Assembly: GCA_947252645.1 (NCBI GenBank)
Contig: CAMXWF010000006.1
Coordinates: 64,697 to 128,696 of the forward strand
DNA: 64,000 nt
Direction of reading: 5' to 3'
Origin: an uncultured Bacteroidia bacterium
GTDB lineage: Bacteria > Bacteroidota > Bacteroidia > Bacteroidales > CAJPTX01
Positions 2,218 to 63,531 of the stretch are shown piece after piece (positions within the stretch are counted from its first letter, which is position 1; each line of letters opens with the position of its first letter). The position numbers were made by a program, and so were the translations under genes. Under the pieces are notes generated by a model. The model was not told where the DNA came from. It ran no database searches and was given only the letters and a program-made list of their open reading frames with translations.

Positions 2218-3288
2218 ATGCCTACGCATCGCGCAGATGCCCCCAAGCCTCCACGTCGCGTGCTGGTGTTACGCCTGTCTGCGCTGGGCGATGTGGTGAT
2301 GATGCTGCCCCTGCTGCGCCAGGCCGCAGAGAGCTACCCAGAGGTGGAGTGGGTGGTGGTTTCCCAGGCGCACGTGGCCACGCTCTTCAGCGCGCTGGAG
2401 CGTGTGCGCTTCATCCCGGCCTACACCCATGGCGCCCATAAAGGCCTCCGTGGCCTATGGCAGCTGGCCAAAACCATCCATGCAGCAGGCCCCTACGAGG
2501 GGGTGGCCGACATGCACTCCGTGTTGCGGGCGTGGATCATTTGCCTCTTCCTACGTCTACTAGCACTACCCCACCACCTACAACTGGCGCATATCGACAA
2601 AGGGCGGCGCGGCAAGCGCGCGCTCTGCCGTGCGCACCATAAGCTCCTTCAGCCGCAGACTCACTCCATGATCCGCTATAGCAATGTGTTGGCGCAATTG
2701 GGATTCCTCGTCAACGTGCCCAAATGCTCCCATCTGATACCTCAACACCATGACCTGCCCCACATCCTAGAGCTGCTTGCGCCGTGCCGCGACTGGGTAG
2801 GCATAGCGCCCTTCGCTAAGCACGCAGGGAAGATGTATCCGCTGGCGTATAGCCTAGCGGTGGCCCAGCAGCTCTACGCGCGGGGCTACGGGCTTTGCCT
2901 CTTCGGGGCGGGCAACGAGGAGTCCCGCGTGCTGGAGGCATGGCATGAAAGCATGCCGCGAAGTATCAACGTGGCCGCGCTCCACAAAGGCCTTGACTGG
3001 GAAGTGGCCCTGATGCAGCAGCTGGAGGTGATGTTCACCATGGACTCAGCCAACCTGCATCTGGCCTCCTGGGCAGGCATCCCCGTGGTCTCCTTCTGGG
3101 GGGCTACGCACCCCTACGCGGGCTTCTACGGATGGGGACAAGCCCCGCAGCACTCCCTAGGGCGGCAAGACCTCGACTGTCGCCCCTGCTCTGTCTACGG
3201 TAATAGGCCCTGTAGACGGGGCGACTATGCCTGTAAGCAGATGCCCCCGGCACGCATTGTGGAGGTCATGCTCTCGGCCATAAAATAG
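2218..3288 (+). CDS. Glycosyltransferase family 9 (LPS heptosyltransferase-like)
   Basis: The 356-aa product has the N-terminal motif RVLVLRLSALGDVVMMLPLL typical of GT9 and a C-terminal Cys-rich tail. Confidence 0.75.
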   Translation: MPTHRADAPKPPRRVLVLRLSALGDVVMMLPLLRQAAESYPEVEWVVVSQAHVATLFSALERVRFIPAYTHGAHKGLRGLWQLAKTIHAAGPYEGVADMHSVLRAWIICLFLRLLALPHHLQLAHIDKGRRGKRALCRAHHKLLQPQTHSMIRYSNVLAQLGFLVNVPKCSHLIPQHHDLPHILELLAPCRDWVGIAPFAKHAGKMYPLAYSLAVAQQLYARGYGLCLFGAGNEESRVLEAWHESMPRSINVAALHKGLDWEVALMQQLEVMFTMDSANLHLASWAGIPVVSFWGATHPYAGFYGWGQAPQHSLGRQDLDCRPCSVYGNRPCRRGDYACKQMPPARIVEVMLSAIK

Positions 3289-3315
3289 TAACTTGGCCCC
3301 CAATAGGCGTTTAGC

Positions 3316-4179
3316 ATGAGCATCAACGACACCACGCCCCCCGCGCCTGAGAGGCCCGAGGCTCGCCACTTAGGCCATCGCTCTCCACTGCCCGACCGCT
3401 ACGACCCCACCTTGCTGGTTCGCGTGGAACGCCAACTGGCCAGAAAAGCCAACCGAGTGGACACCTCCAGCTCTCCCTTCGAGGGCTTCGACGTTTGGCA
3501 CGCCTACGAGGTAGCCTGCATGCAGCAAGCCGGACTGCCCATCGAGGGGATTCTCAAGGTGATCTACCCTGCCAGCAGCCCCTACATCGTGGAGAGCAAG
3601 TCGCTCAAACTCTACCTCCACTCCCTCAACAACGTCGCCATGGGCTTTACCCGCCCCGCGTGCATTGCACAGCTCGTCAGCACCGTGCAGCAAGACCTAC
3701 GCCTGCTGCTCAAAACCGATGTGCGGTGCCAATTCTTCGACCACTACACCGCACCATGCGACTTTGAGGGGTGGCAACCCTACGAAACCGCTACCCCCAC
3801 AAGCGCAGCCCAAGAGAATGCACTCGACCACGAGCTACACTTCCACACTCGCCTGCTGCGCAGTCGTTGTCGCGTGACTGGGCAACCAGATTGGGGCAAT
3901 CTCTACGTACACATGCAGGGCGAAAAGCTCCCGCACCCCCAAGAGCTACTCCAGCAGGTCGTTGCGCTACGCAATGGCTTCCACTTCCACGAAGAGATCT
4001 GCGAACTGCTCTACAGCGCGCTCTACCAGAAATACCTCCCTGCGCTTCTAACCGTATGCACCCTCTACACGCGGCGCGGGGGGATCGACATCAACCCCTG
4101 CCGAACAAACAACCTCAACGACCTTCCCCAGGGCCTCACAGACCTCAACGCACTGACGCATCCCTCGTGGCGACAGTAA
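3316..4179 (+). CDS. queF: NADPH-dependent 7-cyano-7-deazaguanine reductase, two-domain (type II) form
   Basis: The 287-aa product contains IVESKSLKLYLHSLNN and CRVTGQPDWGNLYV, which are hallmark QueF motifs. Confidence 0.85.
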   Translation: MSINDTTPPAPERPEARHLGHRSPLPDRYDPTLLVRVERQLARKANRVDTSSSPFEGFDVWHAYEVACMQQAGLPIEGILKVIYPASSPYIVESKSLKLYLHSLNNVAMGFTRPACIAQLVSTVQQDLRLLLKTDVRCQFFDHYTAPCDFEGWQPYETATPTSAAQENALDHELHFHTRLLRSRCRVTGQPDWGNLYVHMQGEKLPHPQELLQQVVALRNGFHFHEEICELLYSALYQKYLPALLTVCTLYTRRGGIDINPCRTNNLNDLPQGLTDLNALTHPSWRQ

Positions 4180-43376: not shown

Positions 43377-43496
43377 TAACCGCTAGAATCCCAGAGTAGC
43401 TGCATCCTTAGGCTAAGCTACCAAGAATATCCCAGACCCTGCGCTGCTACCAAGCCGCCACCAGCCCACCGGCACCTAGCTGCACGGCATCCTATT

Positions 43497-45836
43497 CTAG
43501 AAATAGAAGCGTACCCCGCCCATGGGCATTATGGCATTCTCGTACACCGCGCGAGGCTTGCCGAACGCCTCATCGTAGAATACCTCGCGCACGTTCCTAC
43601 GGTTCGTTACGTTCGTCACCTCGACGTACGACTCCAAGGCCCCCCACGAAAAGTTCTGCTTCATCGTTACGTTCAAATCCAAGCGAAAGTAGAATGGCGT
43701 GCGCCCCTCGTATGCGCGTTCATACGAAATATCGAGCCGTCCGGTCGAATGCTTGTACGATGGGGTGTAACGCTTTCCCCCAAGGCACACGCAACGCGCA
43801 TTCACGCCTAGCAGCAGGCTCCGCAGCAGGCGCCATTCGTACCCTCCTACTGCCGTTACCCCAAAATCGCCAGCATATTTCCCCGGCCGCCACGCCCCAT
43901 CATGCCCACTGTAGTCGGCACGATACCACGTGCCAGTAAATGTAAAGTAATACCCCTTCCGAAACGGCCGCTCGAGGGTTAGCTCCACGCCGTAGTTCCT
44001 ACCACGCCCGCCATTGACAAAGCGCCGCCCCCAATCATCGTAGTAGGAATCGCCCATGTTCAAAAACGACTCCTGCGGCACGCTCACGGGCACCGGCACG
44101 CGGTAATGGCCTATGTAGTATATCTCTACCTTGGCCACCACCGACTCCACAAGGCGCTGCCCCGCTGAAAGCACCGCCTGCCAACTGCGCGCCGCGCCTA
44201 ACTCCCTATTCGGCATGTCGAGGCCTTCTCGATAGAAATACAGCTGCCTCGGCAAAAGCTGCGAATGCATCCCAGCGGCTATCCCTATAGAACTCCCCTG
44301 CGCGGCCCAACGCAACATCGCCCGTGGCTCCACTGCGTAGTCCCCATTGAGCGCGTAGCACTGCCCGTATACACCCAACCGCAGCGCCAAGGACTGCGCA
44401 AAATGATAATGCCACTGCGCAAATGCGCGCACCACCCCCGAATACATGGCCTCGGCTGGCATTCGAATCCTGCTATGCTCCCCTTTCCCCAACGCAGTGC
44501 CGTAGAGCGTCCCGCCAATCCCGCAACGCAGCGTGCTACGACTCGTGGGTAGCCAACTCAGCTCTGCGCGGCCATCGTACCGATCCTCCCGCTCGTAGCC
44601 TCGGTATACCAAGAATCCTGTATCTCTAGGATACCCAACCATTGTAACCTCCACATTGCGCGCAAAAAGCTGGTAGGAGAGCCTACCCTCAATGCGTACG
44701 CCCTCGGCCATCGCATACGTACTGCAAATACCAGTAAAAAACTGCCTGTTGCGGTTGTCTACCCACTGATTAAAAACCTGGGTCCCCGCCTGGTAGTCCG
44801 CTTCTCCTTGTTGCTCCTGCGCAGTTTCTATCCTACTGCGCCCCCAAAGGGCAAGCCACTCGAACGTGGCTCGCTTGTAGGGTAGGGTAATCTTGGCCAT
44901 GACGTCGTGGTAGCGCGGCACTCCATGCATATTGCGCACTACCCCGATGGCCTTCATCAACTCGAGGATAGAGTAGCGAGCACTGGCAATATACGTGGCT
45001 ACCCCTCGCCTTCCCAATGGCCCCTGCGCGCTCGCCTCTACGCCATTAAAACCCATGCCCGCAGTGAACTCATGGTGCGCTGCATTGCCCCGATGCAACT
45101 GCATATCGAATAGCCCCGAGGTCACATTGCCATACTCGGCAGGAAATGCCCCGGTGAAAAACGTGGAAGTGGCTAAAAAAGTGCTGTTGAGCATCGACAC
45201 CACCCCGCCCGTGCCGCCCAGCGAGCCGTAATGGTTCGGGTTGCTCAGCTCAAAACCATCCACCTGCCACTGCACGCCCAACGGACTATTGCCCCGTACC
45301 ACGATATCATTGCGCATATCGCCTACGCTTACCACACCAGCCGTATTGGTCACCATCCGCGCCGCATCGCCCCACGACCCTGCATAGCGGTTAACCTCTT
45401 CACTGCTCAGAGCCCGCGCGCTCACGCGCCCCCCCACGCCCCCACGGGCCAACACCGACACCTCGGCTATCGACACCTCCTCAGCATACAGCCCCACCAT
45501 GAGATACGCATCGCGCCCCGCAAGCAGCACCACCGAGCTCGCCTCCCAGGGCACATAATCCAGGCAAGTCACGCGTACCTCGGCGCGACCCATGGGCAAC
45601 CCCTCCAGCTCAAATCCGCCTGTCGTATCGCTATACGCCTTACGCAGCGAATCTCCCAATCGCACCTCCACGCTTGCCAACGAAAGCCCGCGGCGCGTCA
45701 TCACATCGTACACTAGACCGCGCAACGTCTGCCCATACCCCCCACTCGCCCATAGCTGGCCTATCACGACAATTAGAATCGCACACCGCCCCCAAGATAG
45801 CATCCCACAAAGTGTATATAAACGCTGCCACCGCAC
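43497..45836 (-). CDS. TonB-dependent receptor with an N-terminal carboxypeptidase-regulatory-like domain
   Basis: The start codon is GTG. The N-terminal domain reads LRGLVYDVMTRRGLSLASVEV. A plug and barrel follow, and the product ends GGVRFYF. Confidence 0.8.
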   Translation of the reverse strand: MRWQRLYTLCGMLSWGRCAILIVVIGQLWASGGYGQTLRGLVYDVMTRRGLSLASVEVRLGDSLRKAYSDTTGGFELEGLPMGRAEVRVTCLDYVPWEASSVVLLAGRDAYLMVGLYAEEVSIAEVSVLARGGVGGRVSARALSSEEVNRYAGSWGDAARMVTNTAGVVSVGDMRNDIVVRGNSPLGVQWQVDGFELSNPNHYGSLGGTGGVVSMLNSTFLATSTFFTGAFPAEYGNVTSGLFDMQLHRGNAAHHEFTAGMGFNGVEASAQGPLGRRGVATYIASARYSILELMKAIGVVRNMHGVPRYHDVMAKITLPYKRATFEWLALWGRSRIETAQEQQGEADYQAGTQVFNQWVDNRNRQFFTGICSTYAMAEGVRIEGRLSYQLFARNVEVTMVGYPRDTGFLVYRGYEREDRYDGRAELSWLPTSRSTLRCGIGGTLYGTALGKGEHSRIRMPAEAMYSGVVRAFAQWHYHFAQSLALRLGVYGQCYALNGDYAVEPRAMLRWAAQGSSIGIAAGMHSQLLPRQLYFYREGLDMPNRELGAARSWQAVLSAGQRLVESVVAKVEIYYIGHYRVPVPVSVPQESFLNMGDSYYDDWGRRFVNGGRGRNYGVELTLERPFRKGYYFTFTGTWYRADYSGHDGAWRPGKYAGDFGVTAVGGYEWRLLRSLLLGVNARCVCLGGKRYTPSYKHSTGRLDISYERAYEGRTPFYFRLDLNVTMKQNFSWGALESYVEVTNVTNRRNVREVFYDEAFGKPRAVYENAIMPMGGVRFYF

Positions 45837-45880
45837 TGCAAATCAAAGCAAACTTCGCAACTCTTGCAAGCTAGACAATA

Positions 45881-46006
45881 GCCTAACGGCAGCTACCTGT
45901 AGGAATTATACAGTGGAAATTATACAGTTAGCAGTATACTGCCTAATTCTAATCCTAGCTACTTACGGCTAACAACATGATAATAAATACTGACAACTGC
46001 CCACTG
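45881..46006 (+). repeat. Direct repeat copy 1 (126 bp): upstream region plus the first 10 codons of the alkylation-repair-like gene
   Basis: This segment aligns base-for-base, at a constant offset of 341 bp, with 46222-46347. Scattered substitutions are present. The repeat includes the ATG (45977 versus 46318). Confidence 0.85.
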
Positions 46007-46075
46007 AAAACAGACAACTGCCCACTGAAAACAGACAACTGCCCACTGAAAACAGACAACTGCCCACTGTTTTGA
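45977..46075 (+). CDS. Candidate 32-codon mini-ORF MIINTDNCPL(KTDNCPL)3F
   Basis: My own translation starts from the duplicated ATG and stops at TGA 46073-46075. It is too short for the ORF track. It inherits the same upstream sequence as the real gene at 46318. Expression is unproven. Confidence 0.3.
   Translation: MIINTDNCPLKTDNCPLKTDNCPLKTDNCPLF
45992..46069 (+). repeat. 21-bp tandem repeat, 3.7 copies (gacaactgcccactgaaaaca)
   Basis: Unit starts fall at 45992, 46013, 46034 and 46055. The copies are perfect. The minus-strand ORF track mirrors this as QWAVVCF x3. Confidence 0.9.
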
Positions 46076-46221
46076 CAGCACTGCCGCCAAAACAGCTGGA
46101 GGGCGTTGCAAGGTTTGCAGAACGAGCGGCAATTGCGTAAATTGCCAGTGGGCAGTAGACGGCAGGCAGTTGCTAGTGGGTTTCATACTGGTAGCTGGTA
46201 GCTGTTAACTGGCTTCAGCCT

Positions 46222-46347
46222 GCCTAACGGCAGCTACCTGTAGGCAGTATACAGTGGACAGTATACAGTTAGCAGTATACATCTTAATTCTAATTCTAGC
46301 TACTTACGTCTAACAACATGATACTAAATACTGACAACTGCCCACTG
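46222..46347 (+). repeat. Direct repeat copy 2 (126 bp), the copy attached to the intact gene
   Basis: See the entry for 45881-46006. Confidence 0.85.
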
Positions 46348-47055
46348 GCAACTACCCAGCGCGTGGCCTACGAAATCGCCCGCATGGCCAACCCTTCCTA
46401 CGCCCGTTTCCTCCACAAAGTCCTCCCCGGGCAAGAGGACCTCAAGATCCACGGCGTGAAAATCCCCCAACTGCGCGCCCTAGCTCGCCGCCTTGCCCAA
46501 GCCCAGCAGCGGCAGTGCTTTCTCGATGCCCTACCACACCCCAGCCTGGAAGAAAACCTGCTCCACGGACTCCTCATCAACGGCCTCCCAGACGGCCAGG
46601 CCACGCTCACAGAAATACAGCGATTTCTCCCCCACGTGAGCAACTGGATGGTCTGCGACACCACCTCCCCACAAGCCTTCCGCCAACACCCCGAAATCCT
46701 CCAGGGCATACTCCCCCACTGGCTAGCCCCAAGCGCGCAGCCCTACACCCAACGCTTCGCCTGCCTCTGCCTAATGCGCTACTTCCTAGGCCCCCTTTTC
46801 CAAACCGAGCACCTGCAGTGGGTGACTGCGCTCCCCACCTCGCACCGCTACGTACGCACGGGGGCCGCCTGGTACCTGGCCGAAGCCCTCATCGCGCAGC
46901 CTCGCCACGCATGGCCCTGCCTACTAAGCCCAGCAACCCCTACCCCACTGCGCCTCACCGCGCTACAAAAGGCCGTAGAAAGCAACCGCTCCTCCGCTGA
47001 CGACAAATCCTGCTTCCGAAAGCTCATCAAAGAAATCAGGCACGGCAACAGCTAG
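46318..47055 (+). CDS. DNA alkylation repair protein (AlkD-like HEAT-repeat family)
   Basis: The 245-aa product contains ARFLHKVLPGQEDLKIHGVKIPQLRALARRL and WMVCDT, which fit the PF08713-type pattern as I recall it. Confidence 0.75.
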   Translation: MILNTDNCPLATTQRVAYEIARMANPSYARFLHKVLPGQEDLKIHGVKIPQLRALARRLAQAQQRQCFLDALPHPSLEENLLHGLLINGLPDGQATLTEIQRFLPHVSNWMVCDTTSPQAFRQHPEILQGILPHWLAPSAQPYTQRFACLCLMRYFLGPLFQTEHLQWVTALPTSHRYVRTGAAWYLAEALIAQPRHAWPCLLSPATPTPLRLTALQKAVESNRSSADDKSCFRKLIKEIRHGNS

Positions 47056-48245: not shown

Positions 48246-49496
48246 CTAGCGTGAAAGGTGCATATAGGGCTCAATATTCCGAAGCGTCCGCTCGGTTGCA
48301 CCCTTGTTCGACTGCACGAACTCCCGGGCCGCTGCAGCCATACGTTCCTGGCGCTCCGCATCGTCCATCAGGGTCCTAAGCGCAGGCGCCAGCTCCGCGG
48401 GCTTGAGAACAGCCTGCCCTCCCCCGCAAGCCAATAGACCCAGCGCCTCATGGTAATCGCGATACCGCGGGCCAAACACCACAGGCAGCCCATACACCGC
48501 CGGCTCCAACGTATTGTGAATACCCGCACCAAAGCCACCACCCACGTAGGCCAAGCTCGCGTAGGCATAGATGGAAAAAAGTTGCCCAACGCTATCCACT
48601 ATGAGCACATCCACATCCTGGAGCTCCGCGGGCGAGCGCACCTCACTAGCCATCACAGCCGAGCAGGTGAGCCCGCGGCGAAGCGCCGCAAGCCTAGCCT
48701 GACCAAGCTCATGGGGCACCACCACGGCCCGCCAGCCCGAGGGAAGATCGTTGAGCAGCGGCAATAGCCCCTGCTCGTCAGATGGCCACGTACTACCAAA
48801 AACAACCACCTTATGCCCTTGGGCCAAGGACGACACCAACGGGTAGGGCTGGTTCTTCTCCCGGGCCGCTAGCACTCTGTCAAAACGACAATCTCCCGAC
48901 ACAAAGCATCGACTTACACCAAAATCGAGCAGCAGCTGCCGCGACTCCTCATCCTGCACAAAAAGCAGCGAAAAATAGTGCAACACCCGCTTGTAGAAGC
49001 CCCCATACCACTGAAAAAACGACTGCTGCCGACGAAAATAGGCCGATATGAGAAACGTTGGCACCTGACGCCGGGCCAGCTCCATGAGAAAATGCGGCCA
49101 GAACTCATACTTCACAAAGCAAACTATCTCCGGGCGCGCTATGGACAGAAAGTCCCGAACATTCCGCTTCGTATCCAAGGGAAGGTAGCCCACGTAGGTG
49201 GCCAGGGGATCATCGCGACGCACATTGTAGCCCGACGGGGAGTAAAAGGTCACCAGGAGGCGCCAATCGGGGTGCGCAGCCATAAACGCCTCCATGACCG
49301 ACCTCCCCTGCTCATACTCCCCCAAGGAGGCGCAGTGAAACCACACCACCGACCCCTGCCCGGCCGAAAACGCCCGACGCATACGATCCCGCCAACCCCT
49401 CCGCCCGCACAGCAGCGCCCGCGCCTTCGGATGCCACAGCGTCGCCAAATAGACCAAGCAATTGTAGACGTACAACCCCAACGTATAAAACAGCAT
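48246..49496 (-). CDS. waaA: 3-deoxy-D-manno-octulosonic acid (Kdo) transferase
   Basis: The 416-aa product contains VWFHCASLGEYEQGRSV and GGSF...GHN.LEPA-like (VGGGFGAGIHNTLEPA). Confidence 0.85.
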   Translation of the reverse strand: MLFYTLGLYVYNCLVYLATLWHPKARALLCGRRGWRDRMRRAFSAGQGSVVWFHCASLGEYEQGRSVMEAFMAAHPDWRLLVTFYSPSGYNVRRDDPLATYVGYLPLDTKRNVRDFLSIARPEIVCFVKYEFWPHFLMELARRQVPTFLISAYFRRQQSFFQWYGGFYKRVLHYFSLLFVQDEESRQLLLDFGVSRCFVSGDCRFDRVLAAREKNQPYPLVSSLAQGHKVVVFGSTWPSDEQGLLPLLNDLPSGWRAVVVPHELGQARLAALRRGLTCSAVMASEVRSPAELQDVDVLIVDSVGQLFSIYAYASLAYVGGGFGAGIHNTLEPAVYGLPVVFGPRYRDYHEALGLLACGGGQAVLKPAELAPALRTLMDDAERQERMAAAAREFVQSNKGATERTLRNIEPYMHLSR

Positions 49497-50702
49497 AGCT
49501 CACCTCCCACACGACCCCTCGGCCCCCAATGCCTCCTCCAAACCCCACAAAGTTAGAGAATAGTTACCTCTCCGCTACGCCGACCCCACTGACCCCTACG
49601 CCGCGGGAGGGCACCAAAGGAATTCAAGCGCAGCCCAGCGCCCAAACGTAGAATCGGATGCGCCAAGAGGGAGGCCCCGTATGGTCCTGCGCCCGAAAGT
49701 CAAACATCCCCTCCTGGCCATGCCCGTAGGCGTGCGGCAGCTCAGACTCGCCCAGGCGATCGATCAAAGAGAGCAGCACACCCACCACCGCCCCACAGAG
49801 ATGGCCCTCCCACGAAATAGCCGGATCCACTGCCAGCATGCCCCAAAGCAAGCTACCGTAGAGAAACACCACCAGCAGCGATATGGCCACCAGCACCCTA
49901 TCGCGATGCAGCAACCCCGAGAAAAACATGTAAAACGCCAGCGCATACACCAAGCCACTGGCCCCCACATGGTAGCTCGGCCGCGCAAAGCACCACACCC
50001 CCAGCCCCGTCAAGAGCCAGCCCAGCAAGTACACCCTATACCCCCTACGCGGATAGAAGAGGAAAAGCAACGTGCCTAGCACCAGCAAGGACAAGCTGTT
50101 GGTCAGGGCATGCTCCACATTCGGATGGAGCAACGGCATGAACAAAATGCCCAGCAGCCCTCGAAACGTCCGCGGGTAGACACCCAGCCAATAGAATTTA
50201 TCGCCCAGAAAAACGCCCACCAGCCACACACACCAGCCAAATCAGCCACACGTGGGCAGCCGGGAGGAGTAGATTGACCCGCCACCGCCGTAAGTCCTCC
50301 CACGCCTGCCGCGCCGAGGGCACTCCCTGCAAACTAGGCCTCTGGCGCATCGGCTGGTTGCACGTAGCGGATCTCCTGCACCTTCAGCTGCGGATTGTGG
50401 ATCTCCACGATGTCCTCCGAGATGTTGACCAGGCTATCCCCCACCCGCTCACACTGCGAGAGAATATCCACCTCCACCCTATCGCTGATCTCCTCATACT
50501 TCTCCACCCGCGCATAGATGCGGTGAAGCTCCTTCTCGTTCTGGGCATCCATCATGCTCCTGACGAAGTTGAACATGCGGTAGGTGCGCCGGGCATAGAC
50601 CAAGACCTCCTTCTTGGCCTGCAGCAGGGAGAGCTCGCCAGTCTGCAGTAGACCAATGCCTATGGAGTGCAGACGCTCATCCTCATCACCCTTCTCCCGC
50701 AC
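49411..50702 (-). repeat. Segmental duplication, copy A (1292 bp)
   Basis: This segment is colinear with 50703-52423. The offset is 1292 at the left end, 1331 across the rhomboid start and transporter stop, and 1721 at the right end. The indels sum exactly: +390 +54 -15. Confidence 0.9.
49624..50229 (-). CDS. Rhomboid-family intramembrane serine protease (copy A, catalytic residues intact)
   Basis: The start codon is GTG, with a stop 4 codons upstream in frame. The motifs are HPNVEHALTNS, the catalytic HVGASGLVYAL and the catalytic His in EGHLCGAVVG. Confidence 0.75.
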   Translation of the reverse strand: MWLVGVFLGDKFYWLGVYPRTFRGLLGILFMPLLHPNVEHALTNSLSLLVLGTLLFLFYPRRGYRVYLLGWLLTGLGVWCFARPSYHVGASGLVYALAFYMFFSGLLHRDRVLVAISLLVVFLYGSLLWGMLAVDPAISWEGHLCGAVVGVLLSLIDRLGESELPHAYGHGQEGMFDFRAQDHTGPPSWRIRFYVWALGCA

Positions 50703-50788
50703 AGCAGCGCCCGCGCCTTCGGATGCCACAGCGTCGCCAAATAGACCAAGCAATTGTAGACGCACAACCCCAACGTATAAAACAGCAT
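50334..50788 (-). pseudogene. Chimeric remnant: waaA codons 1-28 (50788-50703) fused out of frame to a deleted 3' part of the Na/Pi-cotransporter gene (50702-50334)
   Basis: Segment 50703-50788 is nearly identical to 49411-49496. Segment 50334-50702 matches 51665-51801 plus 52192-52423. In the waaA frame a TAG follows 15 codons after the junction. Confidence 0.8.
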
Positions 50789-51005
50789 AGCTCACCTCCC
50801 ACACGCCCCCTCGGCCTCCAATGCCTCCTTCAAACCCCACAAAGTTAGAGAATAGTTACCTCTCCGCTACGCCGCCCCCAGTGGCCCCTACGCCGCGGGA
50901 GGGCACCAAAGGAAGTCAAGCGCAGCCCAGCACCCCAATGTAGAATCGGATGCGCCAAGAGGAAGGCCCCGTATGGTCCTGCGCCCGAAAGGCAAACATC
51001 CCCTC

Positions 51006-51560
51006 CTAACCATGCCCGTAGGCGTGCGGCGGCTCGGACTCGCCCAGGCGATCGATCGAGGAGAGCAGCACACCCACCACCGCCCCACAGAGATGGCCCT
51101 CCCACGAAATCAGCATGTCCCAGACCAAGCTACCGTAGAGAAACACCACCAGCAGCGATTTGGCCACCAGCAGCGATATGGCCACCAGCAGCGATATGGC
51201 CACCAGCAGCGATATGGCCGCCAGCACCCCATCGCGATGCAGCAACCCCGAGAAAAACATGTGGAACTCCAGCGCATACACCAAGCCTCCGGCCCCCACA
51301 TGGTAGCCCGGCTGCGCGAAGCACCACACCCCCAACCCCGTCAAGAGCCAGCCCAGCAAGTACACCCTATACCCCCTACGCGGATAGAAGAGGAAAAGCA
51401 ACGTGCCTAGCACCAGCAAGGACAAGCTGTTGGTCAGGGCATGCTCCACATTCGGATGGAGCAACGGCATGAACAAAATGCCCAGCAGCCCTCGAAACGT
51501 CCGCGGGTAGACACCCAGCCAATAGAATTTATCGCCCAGAAAAACGCCCACCAGCCACAC
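51006..51560 (-). CDS. Rhomboid paralog (copy B), predicted catalytically inactive or decaying
   Basis: The first 82 aa are identical to copy A. After that it differs in four ways: GASG becomes GAGG, 18 aa are inserted (AISLLV x3), 5 aa (AVDPA) are deleted, and CAG becomes TAG, which truncates the tail. Confidence 0.55.
   Translation of the reverse strand: MWLVGVFLGDKFYWLGVYPRTFRGLLGILFMPLLHPNVEHALTNSLSLLVLGTLLFLFYPRRGYRVYLLGWLLTGLGVWCFAQPGYHVGAGGLVYALEFHMFFSGLLHRDGVLAAISLLVAISLLVAISLLVAKSLLVVFLYGSLVWDMLISWEGHLCGAVVGVLLSSIDRLGESEPPHAYGHG
51146..51217 (-). repeat. 18-bp tandem repeat x4 (ccaccagcagcgatatgg) inside rhomboid copy B
   Basis: The units are 51146-51163, 51164-51181, 51182-51199 and 51200-51217. 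Copy A has a single unit. Confidence 0.9.
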
Positions 51561-51664
51561 ACACCAGCCAAATCAGCCACACGTGGGCAGCCGGGAGGAG
51601 TAGATTGACCCGCCACCGCCGTAAGTCCTCCCACGCCTGCCGCGCCGAGGGCACTCCCTGCAAA

Positions 51665-53413
51665 CTAGGCCTCTGGCGCATCGGCTGGTTGCACGTAGCG
51701 GATCTCCTGCACCTTCAGCTGCGGATTGTGGATCTCCACGATGTCCTCCGAGATATTGATTAGGCTATCCCCCACCCGCTCACACTGCGAGAGAATATCC
51801 AGGTAAAACAACCCAGCCTGGCAACTGTAGCGCCCCTGCTCCATGTTGTCGACATGCGCAGACTTCATGTCGTTGCGATACCGGTTGATGGCATCCTCAC
51901 AGGCATAGGCCTCCGCCAGATCCACCCGCTCATCAGCGCCCCCCAGATTGCGCAGCATAGCCGCAAAGGCATCGTCTACGTAGGTAAACATCTGCTGTAT
52001 ACGGCTCACGATGTACTCGTTGAACCACACCCCATCGCGGTGCTTATTCATAAACAGCCGGGCGATGTTGTGGCAGTAATCGGCCACGTTCTCTATATCA
52101 TCTATCTCCTTGAGTAGGCCCCGCATCGTCGCGCTACCCTCCTCGCTCAACTCCGACGAGTGGATATTACCCAAATACGTGGATATCTCCACCTCCACCC
52201 TATCGCTGATCTCCTCATACTTCTCCACCCGCGCATAGATGCGGTGAAGCTCCTTCTCGTTCTGGGCATCCATCATGCTCCTGACGAAGTTGAACATGCG
52301 GTAGGTGCGCCGGGCATAGACCAAGACCTCCTTCTTGGCCTGCAGCAGGGAGAGCTCGCCAGTCTGCAGTAGGCCAATGCCTATGGAGCGCAGACGCTCA
52401 TCCTCATCGCCCTTCTCCCGCACGGGCAGCAACCGCGTCACAAGCTTCACCATCTGGGGCGTAAACCACACCTGCACCAGCGTGTTTGACACGTTGAAAC
52501 ACGTATGGAACAGCGAGAGCGCAAAGGGCGTGGCCCCCACAGGGTCGGCCTGCAGATCGAAGCCAGCCACCCCCACCAGCCAGGACACCCCCGCCAGGAA
52601 CGGCCTGAAAAGTATGAGTACCCAGCAAACGCCAAAAACATTGAACAGCATATGGAACAGCGCAGCCCGCTTGGCAGCCACATTGCCCACCGAGGCCGCC
52701 AGAATGGCCGTTATCGTCGTGCCGATGTTCTCCCCCAAAATCATGGCCGCCGCCATGGGAAAGTCGATCCAGCCGTTCGAACACATGATGAGCGTCAGGG
52801 CCACCGTGGCCGATGAAGACTGCACTATGAAGGTCATCAGCGTACCCACACCCAAGAAAATAAGCACCGAGAAAAAACCATAGGAGGTGAAGCCCCGAAG
52901 CGCCTCGAGTATCTGGGGATACTCCTGCAAATCGGGCATATTGGCCTTGAGGTACGCCAGGCCCAGGAAGATGAGCGAGAAGCCCAAGATGAGCTCGCCG
53001 CGCGAACGGCGCTTGGGGCGCTTGCTGAAGAGCAACGGTACCACTACGCCGATCATGGGCAAGGTGATGAGGGCTATATCCATCTTGAAGCCAAACAGGG
53101 CGATAATCCACGCCGTGGCCGTCGTGCCGATGTTGGCCCCCATAATCACCCCCACCGCCTGGACCAGGGTGAGCAAGCCCGCGTTGACGAAGCTCACCAC
53201 CATGACCGTGGTGGCCGAGGACGACTGGATCACCGCCGTGACGGCCAAACCCGTCAAAATGCGCTTGAACCGATTGCTCGTCATCGCGGCCAGCAAATCC
53301 CGCATCTTGTCGCCTGCCACCTTCTGGAGCGACTCGCTCATGAGCTTCATCCCGTAGAGAAAAACCCCCAGCGAGCCTACCAGCGTCAACACCTCAAGCA
53401 GTACCTCGAGCAT
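51665..53413 (-). CDS. Na+/phosphate cotransporter family protein with a C-terminal PhoU-like repeat domain
   Basis: The 582-aa product has an N-terminal half with duplicated GANIGTT / GENIGTT motifs. The C-terminal half has two PhoU-like helical repeats. Confidence 0.85.
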   Translation of the reverse strand: MLEVLLEVLTLVGSLGVFLYGMKLMSESLQKVAGDKMRDLLAAMTSNRFKRILTGLAVTAVIQSSSATTVMVVSFVNAGLLTLVQAVGVIMGANIGTTATAWIIALFGFKMDIALITLPMIGVVVPLLFSKRPKRRSRGELILGFSLIFLGLAYLKANMPDLQEYPQILEALRGFTSYGFFSVLIFLGVGTLMTFIVQSSSATVALTLIMCSNGWIDFPMAAAMILGENIGTTITAILAASVGNVAAKRAALFHMLFNVFGVCWVLILFRPFLAGVSWLVGVAGFDLQADPVGATPFALSLFHTCFNVSNTLVQVWFTPQMVKLVTRLLPVREKGDEDERLRSIGIGLLQTGELSLLQAKKEVLVYARRTYRMFNFVRSMMDAQNEKELHRIYARVEKYEEISDRVEVEISTYLGNIHSSELSEEGSATMRGLLKEIDDIENVADYCHNIARLFMNKHRDGVWFNEYIVSRIQQMFTYVDDAFAAMLRNLGGADERVDLAEAYACEDAINRYRNDMKSAHVDNMEQGRYSCQAGLFYLDILSQCERVGDSLINISEDIVEIHNPQLKVQEIRYVQPADAPEA

Positions 53414-58356: not shown

Positions 58357-58411
58357 CAACTCCATACCAACTCCGCACCAGCTCCGTACCCGCTCCGCAC
58401 CAACTCCGCTC
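58357..58411. repeat. 11-bp phased repeat x5 (CCRYAC/CCGCTC hexamers at 58362, 58373, 58384, 58395, 58406)
   Basis: The units read caactccatac caactccgcac cagctccgtac ccgctccgcac caactccgctc. The array ends in the 14-mer accaactccgctca, which is also found at 19746-19759. Confidence 0.8.
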
Positions 58412-63391: not shown

Positions 63392-63448
63392 CCCTGTAGC
63401 GTATAACTAGCATGTAAGCTGCTGCGAAGGTAGAGATTTTGTGCCACA

Positions 63449-63531
63449 TAGTAGCATTTGGCGCAATTCCATTGTAGCGTTTGGCCGACTTTCAATGTAG
63501 CATTCGGCGCAGTTCCATTGTAGCGTTTGGC
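63449..63531. repeat. Four 23-bp-phased repeats (core TGTAGCRTTYGGC) organised as a 46-bp unit x2
   Basis: gtagcatttggcgcaattccattgtagcgtttggc (63450-63484) matches gtagcattcggcgcagttccattgtagcgtttggc (63496-63530). Confidence 0.85.

Follow-up and report, generated by a model that had tools for sequence, protein, structure and literature searches.

A probable decaying pseudogene from a recent tandem duplication of a rhomboid gene in an uncultured Bacteroidia lineage

The eukaryotic iRhoms and Derlins are intact, ancient, and conserved proteins that are under purifying selection, and iRhoms are further marked by an iRhom homology domain, a long cytoplasmic N terminus, and a Pro beside the position of the former catalytic Ser. 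The human pair CYP21A1P/CYP21A2 is a textbook tandem-duplication pseudogene with gene conversion onto the working copy. iRhoms and Derlins are described as rhomboid-derived proteins without the catalytic Ser (PMC3149277 and PMC12615303), and an adaptor role is described for the B. subtilis rhomboid YqgP (PMC7231995). Here we analyze a locus with two rhomboid genes, copy A and copy B, in a 64,000-nucleotide stretch of DNA from an uncultured Bacteroidia bacterium (the window). Copy B has lost its catalytic Ser, and we conclude that it is very probably a non-functional, decaying pseudogene derived from a recent tandem duplication, which is ordinary biology. All genes and landmarks of the locus lie on the minus strand, which is called the gene strand below.

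Read along the gene strand, the locus consists of a Na+/Pi cotransporter-PhoU gene (NaPi/PhoU), rhomboid B, a kdtA'::NaPi' remnant, rhomboid A, and kdtA. The two outer genes, NaPi/PhoU upstream (51665-53413; Pfam PF02690/PF01895) and the Kdo transferase gene kdtA downstream (48246-49496; Pfam PF04413), are intact and are the partners of the rhomboid gene in the ancestral operon. Direct repeats and the alignment of A with B show that both rhomboid copies are held in a tandem duplication of ∼1.3 kb. The remnant between them (50334-50840, from the ORF list and the alignment) is composed of a duplicated kdtA promoter and 31 codons from the start of kdtA, which run out of frame into the 3' end of NaPi/PhoU (its last 120 codons' worth), and the NaPi' part has an internal, in-frame deletion of 390 bp. 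At the duplication junction (50696-50702), kdtA codon ∼31 and the NaPi/PhoU linker share 7 bp of microhomology, GTGCGGG when read on the gene strand, and the junction of the 390-bp deletion, at 50467-50470, has the microhomology TGGA (gene strand).

The remnant had no Pfam match. It contains an ORF of 156-168 codons that is open in all genomes compared; in the C-terminal 120 codons of this ORF, the first half of PhoU repeat 1 from the NaPi gene is joined in frame to the second half of its PhoU repeat 2. Only 1-2 amino acid changes separate the genomes in this ORF, a number too small for a selection test. An Rfam search over the window returned only two tRNAs, both distant from the rhomboid locus.

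Related contigs were recovered via exact-protein look-ups and a cluster listing. Independent metagenome assemblies of close relatives, at least 8 in number, contain the same duplication junction; the architecture of the window is shared by L003, L004, L088, L089, L090, and L091, and also by L092, where it is cut by the contig end, and across the junction the window, L003, and L004 have the same sequence. A single rhomboid gene was found in three more distant genomes. The outgroup L005 (∼80% nucleotide identity) has NaPi, one intact rhomboid gene (232 aa), and kdtA, and the closest GTDB genomes with synteny, L007 and L008 (an uncultured Bacteroidia MAG and Candidatus Bacteroides periocalifornicus), have one rhomboid each with GASG and His present. 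Because the junction is shared by close relatives and L005, L007, and L008 each have a single rhomboid, the sequences indicate that the duplication was one recent event in a narrow lineage of uncultured Bacteroidia.

A GTDB scan with P0001, the protein of an intact full-length A orthologue, found nothing, and a scan with the NaPi protein found no relative above 66% identity, the matches being uncultured Bacteroidia, Candidatus Bacteroides periocalifornicus, and dolphin oral MAGs, so that GTDB holds no close representative of this organism. Nothing was found when JGI metagenomes were scanned for the duplication junction. A degenerate JGI scan around the Ser codon yielded one human-gut contig, L006 (2.6 kb, 3x coverage), which is a collapsed A/B chimera that is unusable as a strain sample; this human gut metagenome contig provides the sole environmental label for the lineage.

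We propose that the locus was derived from an ancestral NaPi/PhoU–rhomboid–kdtA operon, the arrangement shown by L005, L007, and L008. Illegitimate recombination that joined kdtA codon ∼31 to the NaPi C-terminal region through the shared 7 bp would have duplicated ∼1.7 kb in tandem, and the 390-bp deletion would later have trimmed the NaPi' fragment; both junctions are visible in the DNA, and the order of the two events is inferred. The window is itself a metagenome scaffold (ENA ERZ28569623, sample SAMN25037372, BLOO22-1 scaffold_57, 139 kb), and chimeric or collapsed A/B contigs are known from L006, L087, and a patch in L092_B, which raises the alternative that the tandem pair is an assembly artefact in which two strain variants of one gene were set side by side. 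This is exceedingly improbable, as the homologies at the junctions are only 7 and 4 bp, far under any assembly k-mer and too short for an assembler to create, so that both junctions must exist in the reads. In addition, the same junctions and gene order are present in 8 assemblies that come from different samples and from at least two pipelines, MEGAHIT (k141) and a scaffold pipeline.

Copy A (49624-50229; PF01694, E=3.9e-20) encodes 201 aa and is shortened by a TGTG frameshift. Its GASG and His motifs, YHVGASGLVYAL and SWEGHLCGAVVG, are intact, as had been stated in an earlier reading made from the sequence of the window only (hereafter, the sequence-only reading). The 184-aa ORF of copy B (51006-51560) is the longest that remains of the probable pseudogene, and its rhomboid domain is still recognizable by sequence (PF01694, E=1.8e-13). 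Residues 1-82 of copy B in the window are those of copy A, after which copy B reads YHVGAGGLVYAL. The codon for the catalytic Ser is AGT in A (49957-49959) and GGA, encoding Gly, in B (51288-51290). Copy B also has a TM5 segment with three extra 18-bp units, is missing the 15 bp that encode AVDPA in the TM5-TM6 loop (codons 172-176) at 51110/51111, and is closed by a premature TAG where A has CAG (51006-51008). Each of these differences had been noticed before and was confirmed here. A sequencing error at the Ser codon, which had been named as a possible cause, is ruled out: the Gly codon, the deletion, and the TAG recur in the B copies of 7 other independent assemblies (in L092_B the patch at the deletion site is A-type). 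Copy B in the window retains the TM2 HxxxN motif, the TM4 G-x-x-G frame, and the TM6 His (SWEGH), and peptides unique to B include AISLLVAISLLV and HVGAGGLVYALEF.

Intact orthologues such as P0001 and P0002 are 232-245 aa long, start at an ATG overlapping the stop codon of NaPi, and have an N-terminal tail and TM1; the orthologous A copies, of 240-245 aa, are intact in 9 other assemblies. When compared with P0001, P0002, and these nine A copies, the B copies have disabling lesions. In all of them a TGTG insertion after codon 40 splits off the N-terminal ∼40 codons, including TM1. In the window this 4-bp insertion lies in a (CA)4/(TG)4 tract at 51556-51563, aligned with (TG)2 in intact A copies at alignment columns 238-241, and the readings at the TM1 site are GGCTGGTGTGTGTGGCTGG for frameshifted and GGCTGGTGTGGCTGG for intact genes. 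The original start of copy B, its N-terminal tail, and half of TM1 are still present as a detached ORF of 50 codons (51529-51681; MRQRPSLQG...HVWLIWLV) that matches the N terminus of P0001 and P0002; its ATG and the end of the NaPi gene overlap, which is also the arrangement in the intact orthologues. The proposal that all changes in copy B keep the reading frame is therefore wrong for the gene as a whole and holds only inside the residual ORF. Use of the (TG)n tract as a hypermutable, phase-variable, or programmed frameshift site was considered and rejected, as the length of the tract does not vary within either group, being (TG)4 in every B copy and (TG)2 in every intact A copy.

The other lesions fall into those found in every B copy and those confined to some strains. 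The S130G change at the nucleophile (AGT to GGA), which turns the GxSG motif into GAGG, is present in 8/8 B copies, and R122Q, S124G, A137E, R150G, V153A, L167V, G169D, and L194S are also found in all of them, as is Q211stop, with loss of the conserved C-terminal HTG..W tail. The strain-specific lesions are W38stop (4 assemblies), H126Y (4 assemblies), and H182P, which replaces the catalytic TM6 His by Pro in L003_B, L088_B, and L089_B; Y139H and an Ile to Lys change within a repeat unit are additions of copy B in the window. Positions that are invariant in the family are thus altered in B (G55, G169, R122, and His), and Ser and His are both kept in 119 of the 120 best homologue clusters, with the one exception being itself a B copy. 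Neither the full six-TM core with TM1 nor an intact reading frame is found in any B orthologue (frameshift and Q211stop in all, W38stop in some).

Selection was estimated by the Nei-Gojobori method and from events polarized by parsimony with the outgroup. The A copies compared with the outgroup gave ω values of 0.14-0.20, and B compared with A in the unconverted 3' part gave values of 0.6-1.14. Pairs of B copies differ by 0-1 synonymous and 5-15 non-synonymous changes, with ω undefined where dS=0. In the polarized data, the B lineage has accumulated 31 non-synonymous or nonsense changes and 6 synonymous ones (ω ∼1.8), and the A lineage has 6 of each, its replacements being five in the N-terminal tail/TM1 and one at S86. 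The ratio in the B lineage is not significantly different from that expected under neutrality (p=0.26) and does differ from the regime of the family (Fisher p=8e-7; binomial versus ω 0.17, p=3e-10), so that purifying selection on B after the loss of catalysis was not detected. The divergence of A from B is about equal in downstream non-coding DNA (4.8%) and in coding DNA (7.2%). The nominal ω of B is greater than 1 (1.8) and, with more data, could come to indicate adaptive change instead of drift.

A profile of the subfamily alignment had no match at E≤0.001 among PDB sequences, so a fold search was needed to tie the family to GlpG. The model of P0001 (mean pLDDT 83, >90 across TM1-TM4) is predicted to be a 6-TM GlpG-like fold that includes TM1 (residues ∼18-52) and superposes on the whole GlpG core, with a target-normalized TM-score versus GlpG of 0.72-0.79. 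In copy B the TM1 hydrophobic segment is missing and a 46-residue hydrophobic run replaces TM5. AlphaFold gave low confidence only at the N terminus of B and over the repeat insertion (pLDDT ∼55), and modeled most of B as a rhomboid-like bundle (pLDDT 79), a method that is insensitive to such lesions. The model fits a damaged fold, which is weak evidence by itself and uninformative on function.

The sequence-only reading had left two outcomes for copy B, a decaying pseudogene and an inactive, substrate-binding rhomboid analogous to iRhoms, and had proposed a dN/dS estimate, a survey of relatives, and a prediction of topology and structure as checks. All three were run: the B lineage is not different from neutral; Gly is present in 8/8 B copies with 1, 2, or 4 copies of the 18-bp unit in B and 1 in A; and B is without TM1 and has a poorly modeled insertion, yet a bundle is still predicted for it. 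The second outcome, that B is a functional, catalytically dead rhomboid that binds substrates or partners as an iRhom, a Derlin, or the YqgP adaptor would, draws on the fixation of the Ser to Gly change in all B copies, on an ORF of 166-184 codons that persists in most of them, and on the Pfam rhomboid domain that is still detected; rhomboid pseudoproteases and a non-catalytic adaptor role of a bacterial rhomboid are also known (PMC3149277 and PMC7231995). We regard this reading as very unlikely. The frameshift removes TM1, the stop codon cuts off the conserved C-terminal tail, ω is ∼1 or above, invariant residues are altered, the insertion varies in length by strain and has a Lys in mid-helix in one unit, and B is confined to one shallow lineage. 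The iRhom-like reading failed in each of the tests applied, which were an intact frame, purifying selection, a complete fold, and conservation past one shallow lineage.

The first outcome, a decaying pseudogene, is the one supported by the frameshift, by one or two nonsense codons, by a neutral substitution pattern (dN/dS indistinguishable from 1), by a repeat of variable length, and by lesions that arose independently in different lineages, with loss of the catalytic His among them. After the duplication, the upstream copy B would have been redundant and would have drifted without constraint, acquiring the +4 frameshift with loss of TM1, the Ser to Gly change, at least 11 other amino acid changes, the 15-bp deletion, and a nonsense codon, to which different strains would then have added further hits. 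Besides the nominal ω and the modeled bundle, there are further counterpoints to the pseudogene reading. The ORF of 166-184 codons, which starts at an internal GTG, is open in most B copies and is called by gene callers (the ORF called for B of L090 is 142 aa), and transcription of copy B is probable, given that the NaPi gene immediately precedes it. From its position between the NaPi gene and kdtA, B would be at most passively transcribed, and no protein function is proposed for it.

The 18-bp tandem array of copy B (51146-51226) lies in TM5, and its unit, CCACCAGCAGCGATATGG on the plus strand, encodes AISLLV. Tandem Repeats Finder (TRF) counted 4.5 copies at 96% matches in B and 1.5 copies by the same count in A, and copy B is longer than A by 54 bp, which is three additional AISLLV units, one unit having Lys in place of Ile in mid-helix. 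All A copies have a single unit, as do L003_B, L088_B, and L089_B; there are two units in L004_B, L090_B, L091_B, and L092_B, and four in B of the window. The ancestral sequence contains the 9-bp direct repeat TGCTGGTGG twice with an 18-bp period, and such a pair is a substrate for slippage. We propose that the expansion occurred by replication slippage on this pre-existing repeat and was tolerated only in the unconstrained copy. Because the unit of 18 bp is a multiple of three, the frame would be kept without selection, and the confinement of the expansion to the unconstrained copy is the prediction of drift.

The two copies in the window are 100% identical over 419 bp (50005-50423 in A, 51336-51754 in B), a stretch made up of the 5' half of the gene together with its upstream region. 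In other genomes A and B differ at 14 sites and by a 4-bp indel in this region, and differ over their whole length; the identity of the first 82 residues thus stands for the window and does not extend to the other genomes. An A-specific upstream marker, CCTGGTCAACATC, is located at 50422-50434 of the window (reverse strand). All nine diagnostic sites of the shared sequence are of the B lineage (5 B-derived states present, 4 A-derived states absent), and L69F, A75P, and D76N are common to the shared sequence and to other B copies. Copy A of the window therefore has a B-type 5' half with the frameshift included (the TGTG insertion lies within 50225-50232), which accounts for a length of 201 aa and not 240-245 aa. 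It follows that copy A, taken earlier as a sound reference, has the same N-terminal frameshift as B. Because the 5' halves of the copies were homogenized, by conversion or by the assembler, the changes seemed to cluster around the active site; the clustering that had been called notable is a product of this homogenization and not of targeted change. Targeted mutagenesis like that of diversity-generating retroelements (DGR), considered for the one-sided clustering, was rejected, as every type of substitution occurs between A and B, without restriction to the adenines of one copy.

The B-type tract in copy A of the window is about equally likely to be a real B-to-A gene conversion and an assembly artefact. 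An artefact is favored by the collapsed chimera L006 and by the A-type patch of L092_B, which comes from the same scaffold pipeline as the window and is absent from the MEGAHIT contigs of the same strain, L090 and L091. Should the conversion into A be real, the strain would be left without a good copy of the gene at this locus, which would suggest that the rhomboid is dispensable in the lineage. In L087 (Logan SRR32921336, a 28-kb contig), positions 2719-3792 contain one rhomboid gene between NaPi and kdtA, without the remnant; it is B-type to about codon 153-167 and A-type thereafter, and looks like a collapse of the duplication by unequal crossing-over or a collapse in assembly. Two proteins from contigs of ∼1 kb, P0126 and P0127, are additional A/B mosaics.

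Mosaics of this kind could be taken to mean that copy B is a silent donor cassette and that frequent conversion or unequal crossing-over turns the A rhomboid off reversibly. If true, an intramembrane protease would here undergo phase variation by recombination within populations of an uncultured, host-associated Bacteroidia lineage, with the window (A with the B-type frameshift) and L087 (a B5'/A3' chimera) as "off" states; the B-type tract of at least 260 bp in copy A, with its frameshift, would fit, as would P0126, P0127, the single chimera of L087, and the patches in L088_B and L092_B. We nevertheless consider such a switch very unlikely indeed. Of 10 A copies on long contigs, 9 are intact without any mixing, most mosaics are on very short or low-coverage contigs, and others come from the scaffold pipeline of the window, whereas MEGAHIT contigs of the same strain are unmixed (L090 and L091 versus L092). 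No recombinase gene or specific site was seen at the locus, and sporadic conversion between tandem repeats that are 93-96% identical is expected without any function.

Elsewhere in the window, the region between the RecG gene and a gene with a DNA_alkylation domain (43448-46355, ∼2.9 kb) differs from L003 and L004; it is ∼350 bp long in these relatives, and in the window a 779-codon gene of CarboxypepD_reg type (TonB-receptor-like) is located there. A 131-nt direct repeat that is 91% identical (45881-46011 and 46222-46352) consists of the promoter and first codons of the DNA_alkylation-domain gene, duplicated 341 bp upstream, and the upstream copy leads into an array of perfect 21-bp tandem repeats, GACAACTGCCCACTGAAAACA x3.7 (45992-46069). 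This local duplication with expansion of a unit is in the same style as the rhomboid locus. Other short tandem arrays are at 63447-63531 (a 23-bp unit x3.7, 74% matches) and at 58357-58409 (an 11/22-bp unit x4.8/2.4).

For annotation, copy B should be treated as a pseudogene and not as a 184-aa "rhomboid family protein", and it is not citable as a bacterial analogue of iRhoms. Outside annotation the significance of the locus is slight. It is a tidy, small example of a microhomology-mediated tandem duplication that is decaying in a bacterial operon, and it combines frameshift, nonsense, active-site loss, and repeat slippage in one place. It also advises caution in reading a single genome, as a seemingly targeted active-site pattern came from half of the copies being homogenized.

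Among known systems, copy B is derived from a gene of the rhomboid protease family (PF01694; prototype E. coli GlpG), the fold of which is modeled for P0001. In contrast to active rhomboids, B has Gly at the nucleophile position, no TM1, no AVDPA in loop 5, 18 extra residues in TM5, and an early end, and it cannot be an active member. Like iRhoms and Derlins, B is rhomboid-derived and without the catalytic Ser; unlike them, it is young (dS ∼0.05-0.1 from A), lineage-restricted, frameshifted, and truncated, with ω ∼1. The additions specific to iRhoms are absent from B, which is shorter than its parent, has only PF01694 in Pfam, and has GAGG without a Pro. The likeness of B to iRhoms, Derlins, and the YqgP adaptor role (PMC3149277, PMC12615303, and PMC7231995) is one residue only. 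With contingency-locus-like VNTRs, which vary by slipped-strand mispairing, the 18-bp array shares variation among strains (1, 2, or 4 units) and a 9-bp direct-repeat seed; here, in contrast, the variation is in the dead copy only, the unit is a multiple of three and is unable to switch the frame, and there is no sign of a regulatory role. The comparison with CYP21A1P/CYP21A2 differs in its setting: the unit here measures 1.3 kb, arose at a microhomology of 7 bp, and lies in a bacterial operon, and the conversion in the window is indistinguishable from an artefact. What the two loci share is a tandem duplicate that gathers lesions and from which pieces are now and then copied into the adjacent working gene, with copy A of the window having a B-type tract that includes the frameshift.
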